Shown piece by piece: positions 23,086 to 23,131 of a stretch of 64,000 nt of DNA. The notes under the pieces are model-generated. The model was not told where the DNA came from. It ran no database searches and was given only the letters and a program-made list of their open reading frames with translations. Location: sequence record PV714129.1. The stretch is one strand, 5' to 3'. This DNA comes from Escherichia phage Mizar. Position 1 is the first letter of the stretch, and the number at the start of each line of letters is the position of its first letter. Both the position numbers and the translations under genes were made by a program.

Positions 23086-23115
23086 TACTTTTTAAAAATA
23101 TTTTGACCCCCTAAA

Positions 23116-23131
23116 GGGACCCGAAGGTCCC
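23116..23131 (-). terminator. UUCG-tetraloop hairpin after the stop codon
   Basis: Minus strand GGGACC-TTCG-GGTCCC then TTTAGGGGGTC; the same module recurs at 41120-41135. Confidence 0.45.

Follow-up and report, generated by a model that had tools for sequence, protein, structure and literature searches.

The stretch of DNA analyzed here, a window of 64,000 nucleotides from Escherichia phage Mizar (sequence record PV714129.1), carries its early genes on the minus strand, and at two places on that strand a small open reading frame is closely followed by a GC-rich hairpin, a short U-tract, a run of 5 G residues, and a putative promoter for the next gene. At site A this arrangement separates an 88-aa ORF from a homologue of nrdC.10, and at site B it separates a 208-aa ORF from a 167-aa ORF (Table 1), with the 88-aa and 208-aa genes in the same orientation as the neighboring early genes. 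Read on the minus strand from the stop codon onward, the module at site A (23132-23105) is TAA-atgt-GGGGACC-TTCG-GGTCCC-TTTAGGGGGTC, and that at site B (41135-41109) is TAA-agaat-GGGGAC-TTCG-GTCCCC-TTTAGGGGGTC, where the TAA of the 88-aa ORF occupies 23139-23137 and that of the 208-aa ORF 41143-41141. Both hairpins have a UUCG loop, a C-G closing pair and a Watson-Crick stem, and the sole differences between the 2 copies are 2 single-base indels that leave stem pairing intact.

Among the 4 proteins flanking the modules, Pfam and PHROGs searches found only families of unknown function. The N-terminus of the 208-aa protein, MYTFNEFLAETE, is similar to the sequence that targets T4 internal proteins to the capsid. 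In T4 the map position corresponding to the 208-aa gene is occupied by ipI, whose product begins MKTFKE.., with promoter-only cassettes on both flanks.

Table 1. Coordinates of the modules, their flanking genes, and related elements in the window.
Feature	Position	Strand	Remarks
Hairpin after regA, AATGGGAC-TTCG-GTCCCATT (RNA AAUGGGAC-UUCG-GUCCCAUU)	1084..1103	-	without G-run tail
nrdC.10 homologue, 326 aa, 3' of site A	22048..23028	-	Shine-Dalgarno GAGGAG
Site A early-promoter-like GTGTAC-N17-TACTAT	23057..23085	-	consensus match only
Site A AT-rich stretch (UP-element-like), AAAATATTTTTAAAAAGTA	23086..23104	-	
Site A tail UUUAGGGGGUC	23105..23115	-	short U-tract + G5 run
Site A hairpin GGGGACC-UUCG-GGUCCCU	23115..23132	-	7 bp, C(UUCG)G tetraloop; -12.4 kcal/mol; begins 4 nt past stop
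88-aa ORF, 5' of site A module	23137..23403	-	presence varies among Mosigviruses
Late-promoter consensus TATAAATA	23436..23443	-	33 nt 5' of 88-aa ORF start
167-aa ORF, 3' of site B	40528..41031	-	
Site B early-promoter-like GTTTAC-N17-TAGTAT	41060..41088	-	consensus match only
Site B spacer + AT-rich stretch, TATAACTTACTGAAAAAGTT	41089..41108	-	
Site B tail UUUAGGGGGUC	41109..41119	-	
Site B hairpin GGGGAC-UUCG-GUCCCC	41120..41135	-	6 bp; -10.8 kcal/mol; begins 5 nt past stop
208-aa ORF, 5' of site B module	41141..41767	-	replaced in AV115-type phages
Late-promoter consensus TATAAATA	41803..41810	-	36 nt 5' of 208-aa ORF start
Hairpin GGGAGCC-UUCG-GGCUCCC	58403..58420	+	followed by AUUUUUG and TATAAATA
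Inverted repeats of GTTATA-loop class	25771-25740, 35848-35819, 37417-37390, 45321-45296, 36119-36091, 21612-21585, 44942-44915, 45679-45653	-	

With up to 2 mismatches allowed, the hairpin pattern was found twice in the window against a mean of 0.12 in shuffled sequence, and 2 or more matches appeared in 0 of 100 shuffles, so chance does not explain the repeat; the 11-mer tail has exactly 2 occurrences in the window. The original prediction had described a nearly identical module after 2 stop codons, naming its occurrence at random positions as a refutation, and a related hairpin after regA. A search for the module bears this out, with both copies directly following stop codons at coordinates 1 to 4 nt away from those first given, and the regA hairpin is present as well (1103-1084).

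The 1.5-kb and 1.4-kb stretches around the 2 sites match more than 100 genomes of T4-like coliphages in the genus Mosigvirus (the RB69 group) at 95-98% identity, with FP43, p000v and LF82-41 as the best matches. Because searches for related loci with the 2 upstream proteins recovered only 1 and 3 loci, the comparative data were drawn from the GenBank phage collection, and FP43, a close relative, was assembled as a complete genome for comparison. Among metagenomic sequences, an exact-pattern scan of IMG/VR for the full module recovered only one Mosigvirus-like contig, and a scan with a looser tail pattern recovered mostly unrelated GC-rich palindromes. An Rfam 15 covariance search of the site A region returned only a chance snoRNA match (E = 1.9) on the opposite strand.

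All 15 copies compared, orthologous and paralogous, have the same closing C-G pair, although the loop varies in 2 of them (UUUG and UUAG). The inner pairs of the stem vary on both sides, with G-C changed to A-U in JS98-type phages and in the gene 32 copies, and with paired C/G insertions in an IMG/VR contig (L002). These two-sided changes point to a hairpin stem that is under selection.

C(UUCG)G hairpins and the putative promoters behind them

Hairpins of the C(UUCG)G type were first found in T4 mRNA in 1988 and are the most stable small RNA hairpins known (PMC4371310). The intercistronic examples of T4 (Tuerk et al. 1988, via PMC4371310) share with the modules the C-G-closed UUCG loop, the short GC-rich stem and the location between cistrons; that work dealt with the thermodynamic stability of the hairpin, whereas a promoter and a G-run tail were outside its subject. 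The FP43 genome contains about 25-30 GC-rich C(UUCG)G hairpins on the early and late strands, nearly all of them a few nucleotides past a stop codon, and placing such hairpins after stop codons is a genome-wide habit in these phages. In many Tequatrovirus genomes GGGACC-UUCG-GGUCCC-UUUAG follows the major capsid gene, and some records annotate it as a terminator. This gene 23 terminator, GGGACC-UUCG-GGUCCC-UUUAGUUGUUUUU, has a hairpin identical or nearly identical to those of the modules and, like them, continues with UUUAG, but the modules have GGGGGUC after UUUA in place of further U, which makes their U-tract minimal. In FP43 the GGGGAC-UUCG-GUCCCC hairpin is also found at 90318-90352, where it is followed by UUUUCUUUAGGGGUAAUUAUG, in which UAGGGGU is the Shine-Dalgarno of the next gene.

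The order past both modules is the same: an AT-rich stretch, a putative promoter, ..CCTATCAA.., a Shine-Dalgarno, and the ATG of the next gene. PeSLs (promoter-early stem-loops) are stem-loops just 5' of an AT-rich region, sigma-70-like -35 and -10 elements, a Shine-Dalgarno and a start codon; they are enriched in hyperplastic regions and have been implicated in modular gene shuffling (PMC2839356, PMC4122927). Each of these features has a counterpart at sites A and B. A stable intergenic stem-loop lies between the stop codon and the Shine-Dalgarno and ATG at both, followed by an AT-rich stretch and by consensus matches to sigma-70-like -35 and -10 elements with a spacing of about 17 nt, and the T4/PST PeSL promoter consensus, TTTACW-N17-TAYWAT (PMC4122927), fits the putative promoters of both sites. 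The units are repeated, with about 10 combinations of stem-loop and promoter in FP43 and a paralogue after gene 32. They are located in hyperplastic regions (nrdC.10/nrdC.11 and downstream of 57A/57B), and they are tied to insertions, deletions and replacements among close relatives.

The modules thus share their architecture, repetition, location in hyperplastic regions (nrdC.x and after 57A/57B) and association with indels with the PeSL cassettes of Arbiol et al. 2010 (PMC2839356) and Comeau et al. 2014 (PMC4122927), and the stems of both consist of G-tracts followed by C-tracts. The described PeSLs come from RB49/phi1, T4/PST and KVP40/nt-1 and do not include the RB69 group, and promoter activity, terminator activity and mini-circle formation have been demonstrated only for those of RB49/phi1 (PMC2839356). 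The Mosigvirus modules, known here from sequence, differ in having a C(UUCG)G tetraloop stem-loop and an extra conserved UUUAGGGGGU linker. Sites A and B are probably PeSL-type terminator-promoter cassettes of a T4-like Mosigvirus. The module is known biology, a combination of T4-type C(UUCG)G hairpins with PeSL cassettes, and not a new kind of element.

A second and commoner class of intergenic inverted repeats is found on the minus strand of the window, with arms of 10-13 bp and a loop that is often GTTATA. The 3' arm in this class consists of the -10 hexamer of an early promoter and the transcript start (..TACTATAGACCTATCAA), whereas the promoter spacer makes up the 5' arm, and the 2 arms would come together only in read-through RNA. 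Stem-loops that overlap the -10 element are a PeSL subclass in Arbiol 2010 (PMC2839356).

Gene gain, loss and exchange at the cassettes

Genes have been gained, lost and swapped at these sites in related phages, with breakpoints located at the hairpin or within the promoter. The 88-aa ORF is missing from RB69 and AV115, where the junction coincides exactly with the hairpin's 5' arm and the tail is unchanged, leaving residual hairpins of AGGGCC-TTCG-GGCCCT in RB69 and AGGGCC-TTCG-GGTCCC in AV115. The order at site A of RB69 is nrdC.11, hairpin and promoter, ORF102c (72 aa), a second promoter, and nrdC.10; RB69ORF102c sits between 2 promoter copies in AV115 and phi25-307 as well, and phi25-307 has both ORF102c and the 88-aa ORF. 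In the window the 88-aa ORF is present and RB69ORF102c is absent, with the junction between the 2 promoter copies (23028-23105 compared with L021 1340-1725). The single promoter at site A of the window looks like a fusion of the 2 copies that flank ORF102c elsewhere, and the absence of ORF102c looks like the result of a deletion via recombination between the 2 promoters.

At site B, the match between the window and many Mosigviruses does not begin until about 6 nt before the -35 element. In AV115 the same downstream gene is preceded by another gene and another hairpin (GCCCC..GGGGC), and NHEP29 has kept both flanking genes with the hairpin swapped for AGCCCC..GGGGCT. The unit of about 100 nt from hairpin to Shine-Dalgarno also recurs alone between gene 32 and frd.3, with 78-86% identity by BLAST, and over its first ~90 nt the site B cassette is about 88% identical to the cassette that phage WFK has between gene 32 and frd. 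This paralogue and the breakpoints at hairpin or promoter agree with the earlier proposal that the hairpins move with the promoter cassettes downstream of them.

The copies also appear to have exchanged sequence with one another. In Winklervirus, the orthologous site A has UUUCGGGCAU and site B has UUUCGGGGGU; in Mosigvirus, sites A and B both have UUUAGGGGGU, and the 7-bp A-type stem is found at site B in a few members (ST0, Ec3-ASingh and the IMG/VR contig L002). Recombination or gene conversion between cassettes would be expected to produce such a distribution of tails and stems.

A second terminator family, AGCCCC-uucc(n)gguu-GGGGCU followed by a U-run, is present on the minus strand of the window at 26245-26268 and 41817-41840, and also in NHEP29 (L033) and AV115 (L029). 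GGCAUCU often follows these hairpins, and in some Mosigviruses they replace the UUCG module at site B.

Termination and other possible roles of the hairpin

The modules contain a GC-rich hairpin followed by only 3 consecutive U residues, where a classic tract would typically have at least 4-6 U within 8 nt, and a three-U tract is weak for a classic intrinsic terminator. With the T-tail scoring formula of d'Aubenton-Carafa et al. 1990, whose values give a relative ranking only, the modules at sites A and B score 1.75 and 2.5, below the 3.2-4.2 of the AGCCCC..GGGGCU terminators (26268-26245 and 41840-41817). In hairpin energy the two groups are comparable, with -12.4 and -10.8 kcal/mol for the modules vs -15.3 and -15.5 kcal/mol for these terminators. 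The original prediction had called the U-tract short and proposed a comparison of free energies with the same 2 terminators. The UUUA tract and its lower T-tail scores confirm the description, and the stem energies turn out to be similar, but the use of the short tract as an argument against a terminator does not hold. The stem-loop of an RB49 PeSL and the rrnB T1 terminator reduced lacZ expression to about the same degree (PMC2839356), and a hairpin identical to that of the modules is annotated as the gene 23 terminator. Given the short U-tract, partial termination (attenuation) would be more likely at the modules than a full stop. A search of the available literature for transcriptome or 3'-end data on T4-type phages found none.

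The same short U-tract could instead indicate that the module serves mainly as a 3' mRNA stabilizer or processing signal. RNA polymerase would then read through the hairpin, RNase E would cut in the AU-rich stretch, and the UUCG hairpin would block 3' exonucleases. Several observations fit this scenario: the single-stranded stretch after the tail is very AU-rich, the stability of C(UUCG)G hairpins is exceptionally high (PMC4371310), and T4 early transcription units are known to reach into downstream genes. It is weakened by the efficient termination of the comparable PeSL stem-loop in a reporter (PMC2839356) and by the gene 23 terminator annotation of the identical hairpin, and we regard it as possible but rather unlikely as the main role, although stabilizer and terminator roles are not mutually exclusive. 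Far more remote is a two-state RNA switch or attenuator in which the 5' arm (forming HP1) and the G-run tail (forming HP2) would compete for the 3' arm. All variants allow HP2 to be drawn, GGUCCC pairing with GGGGGUC by way of G-U pairs, and it was listed by a terminator scan, but since a G-run pairs with every pyrimidine-rich arm there is no covariation signal in HP2. HP1 is favored by 2.6-8 kcal/mol in all 5 variants and forms first during transcription, HP2 has no U-tract behind it, and a leader peptide, a ligand-binding fold and an Rfam match are all absent. In an attenuator or riboswitch, a terminator should alternate with a second structure that excludes it and is about as stable, and the modules have no such pair. 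The HP2 switch was rejected on energetics and the lack of discriminating covariation, and we give it almost no credence. A role at the level of DNA has also been considered, with GGGG..CCCC..GGGGG as the target of a recombination protein and cassette exchange as its main function. The breakpoints exactly at the 5' arm and the signs of copy-to-copy conversion are in line with such a target, as is a hint in the literature, where Arbiol et al. speculated that PeSL stems are targets of a recombination protein (PMC2839356). However, ordinary homologous recombination between repeats of 50-100 nt suffices in T4-type phages, some breakpoints fall in the promoter and not in the stem, and no candidate protein was identified, making a dedicated target very improbable.

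The G-run and a model for the cassettes

The run of G residues in the tail is unusual for these genomes. GGGGG occurs 3 times per strand in FP43 (169 kb) vs about 40-48 expected, a 13-16-fold under-representation (a maximal-order model gives 8.7 expected occurrences), and TTTAGGGGGTC with one mismatch allowed, like AGGGGG, occurs in FP43 only at the 2 orthologous sites. In the 13 tail-bearing copies examined, from 5 genera, stem sequences differ but the G5 run is invariant. Both G5 and C5 runs are strongly under-represented in FP43, and the window has only 5 G5/C5 tracts over both strands (at positions that include 23111, 41115, 52400 and 54456); 2 of the 5 are inside the modules.

Phages of other genera indicate where this tail may have come from. 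In Winklervirus (Kosakonia phage Kc304 and Serratia phage CBH8), Marfavirus (Klebsiella phage PhiKpNIH-6) and Tegunavirus (Yersinia phage fHe-Yen9-01), the same hairpin is followed by (U/A)UU(A/C)-GGGGG, and the G-run leads straight into TTTACA-N17-TA(G/T)TAT with no AT-rich insert, the hairpin and UUUAGGGGG adjoining the -35 hexamer TTTACA. These compact units share the hairpin and UUUAGGGGGU with the window, being 90-100% identical over about 30 nt, but their GGGGG abuts TTTACA-N17-TAnnAT, whereas the -35 element of the window lies 19-20 nt further on, behind the AT-rich insert. JS98-type phages have GGGGGTTTAAAC, with a full promoter 22 nt later. The abutment of G-run and -35 element in other genera suggests that the tail is the linker of a compact hairpin-promoter unit. 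From these alignments UUUAGGGGGU appears to be a promoter-junction sequence and not a distinct RNA motif; it is promoter-proximal and adjoins the -35 hexamer elsewhere, contrary to the original prediction, which had treated the tail as part of an RNA element.

G-runs next to promoters are also found in uncultivated viruses. The exact 14-mer TTAGGGGGTTTACA has matches in at least 120 IMG/VR contigs (loci L038-L157), and a TATAAT-like hexamer lies 16-18 nt further on at 84 of 108 distinct sites. Among 91 other strict promoters in the same contigs, G is found at 57-67% of the 4 positions just 5' of the -35 element. Together these counts indicate that a G-run next to the -35 element is a real promoter-associated feature in some phages. 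At least some of the phages with G-run promoters are T4-like; BLAST of the metagenomic GGGGG-TTTACA contigs gave one faint match, to pelagimyophage HTVC008M, and no other. Typical Mosigvirus early promoters have no G-run. A variant, GGGGG-TTTACAnn-CCCCC-TTTTTT..TATAAT, was seen in 8 of 72 IMG/VR G-run promoters and in 0 of 48 promoters without GGG; its GGGGG-TTTACAnn-CCCCC-TTTTTT portion resembles a terminator hairpin, with the -35 element as its loop and the promoter spacer as its U-tract. A general rule by which GGG follows the T-run of terminators was considered for FP43 and dropped, the enrichment being only marginal (3/33, p about 0.05).

A relic linker does not explain the invariance of G5 across 5 genera or its persistence in a genome that otherwise avoids GGGGG. 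Selection could have kept the AGGGGGU tail as a functional signal, either as an orphan Shine-Dalgarno that docks the 30S subunit beside the hairpin, at the 3' end of the preceding message, for RNA protection or standby, or as a GC block that makes up for the three-U tract by slowing RNA polymerase. In addition to the constancy of G5 in 13 copies with varying stems, and to the rarity of GGGGG and the restriction of AGGGGG to 2 sites in FP43, the predicted duplex of AGGGGGU with the 3' end of 16S rRNA (the anti-Shine-Dalgarno) reaches -10.0 kcal/mol, a value attained by 0.13% of random 18-mers, and among sequences 5' of ORFs no shorter than 100 aa only about 6% attain -9.0 or better. The next gene at FP43 90318 has UUUAGGGGU, placed after the same hairpin, as its real Shine-Dalgarno. 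The tail has no start codon within 4-13 nt, and a mini-ORF behind it was ruled out, as no ATG, GTG or TTG is found at a plausible distance in any variant. Orthologous and paralogous cassettes that do without G5 (UUUCGGGCAU, UUUUGGGCAU and UUUUGAGUAU, with GGGCA or GAGUA instead) count against a selected signal, as does the G-run that forms a mere 5' flank of the -35 element in other genera and many metagenomic phages, which favors a DNA-level explanation of the tail. We therefore find a functional tail doubtful and prefer the promoter-linker origin.

For the PeSL-type cassette, we propose the following sequence of events. The C(UUCG)G hairpin would form on the nascent RNA, 4-5 nt past the stop codon of a small accessory gene with the T4 late-promoter consensus TATAAATA at its 5' side. 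It would most likely act as an intrinsic terminator or attenuator at UUUA and block 3' exonucleases on the released transcript, so that, at the 3' end of the gene, it would halt or attenuate late and early read-through. The next gene would be driven by its own sigma-70-type early promoter, with a UP-like AT-rich stretch, GT(G/T)TAC, 17 nt, TA(C/G)TAT, a Shine-Dalgarno and ATG. The UUUAGGGGGU(C) tail would then be a U-tract plus G-run linker, its compact form, hairpin-UUUA-GGGGG-TTTACA-N17-TAnnAT, being found in related genera; in Mosigvirus the original -35 element may have been lost or replaced (GGGGGTC..), with a fuller promoter cassette now 19-20 nt downstream. Recombination between cassettes would keep the 2 copies alike and shuffle the flanking genes. 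We infer termination, read-through and promoter activity at the modules from these arrangements.

The modules leave the current view of gene regulation in T4-type phages unchanged. In annotation, the cassettes mark the boundaries of transcription units and likely recombination joints, and the conserved G-run could serve the study of termination at very short U-tracts or of compact terminator-promoter junctions. If the functional reading of the tail were true, it would be a signal retained in a genome that purges G5 runs, beyond a leftover promoter flank. For the RB69-group phages, the cassettes would account for the insulation and swapping of small accessory genes in variable regions: with its own terminator hairpin and a fresh promoter behind it, each accessory gene could be added or removed by recombination while its neighbors stay unaffected.
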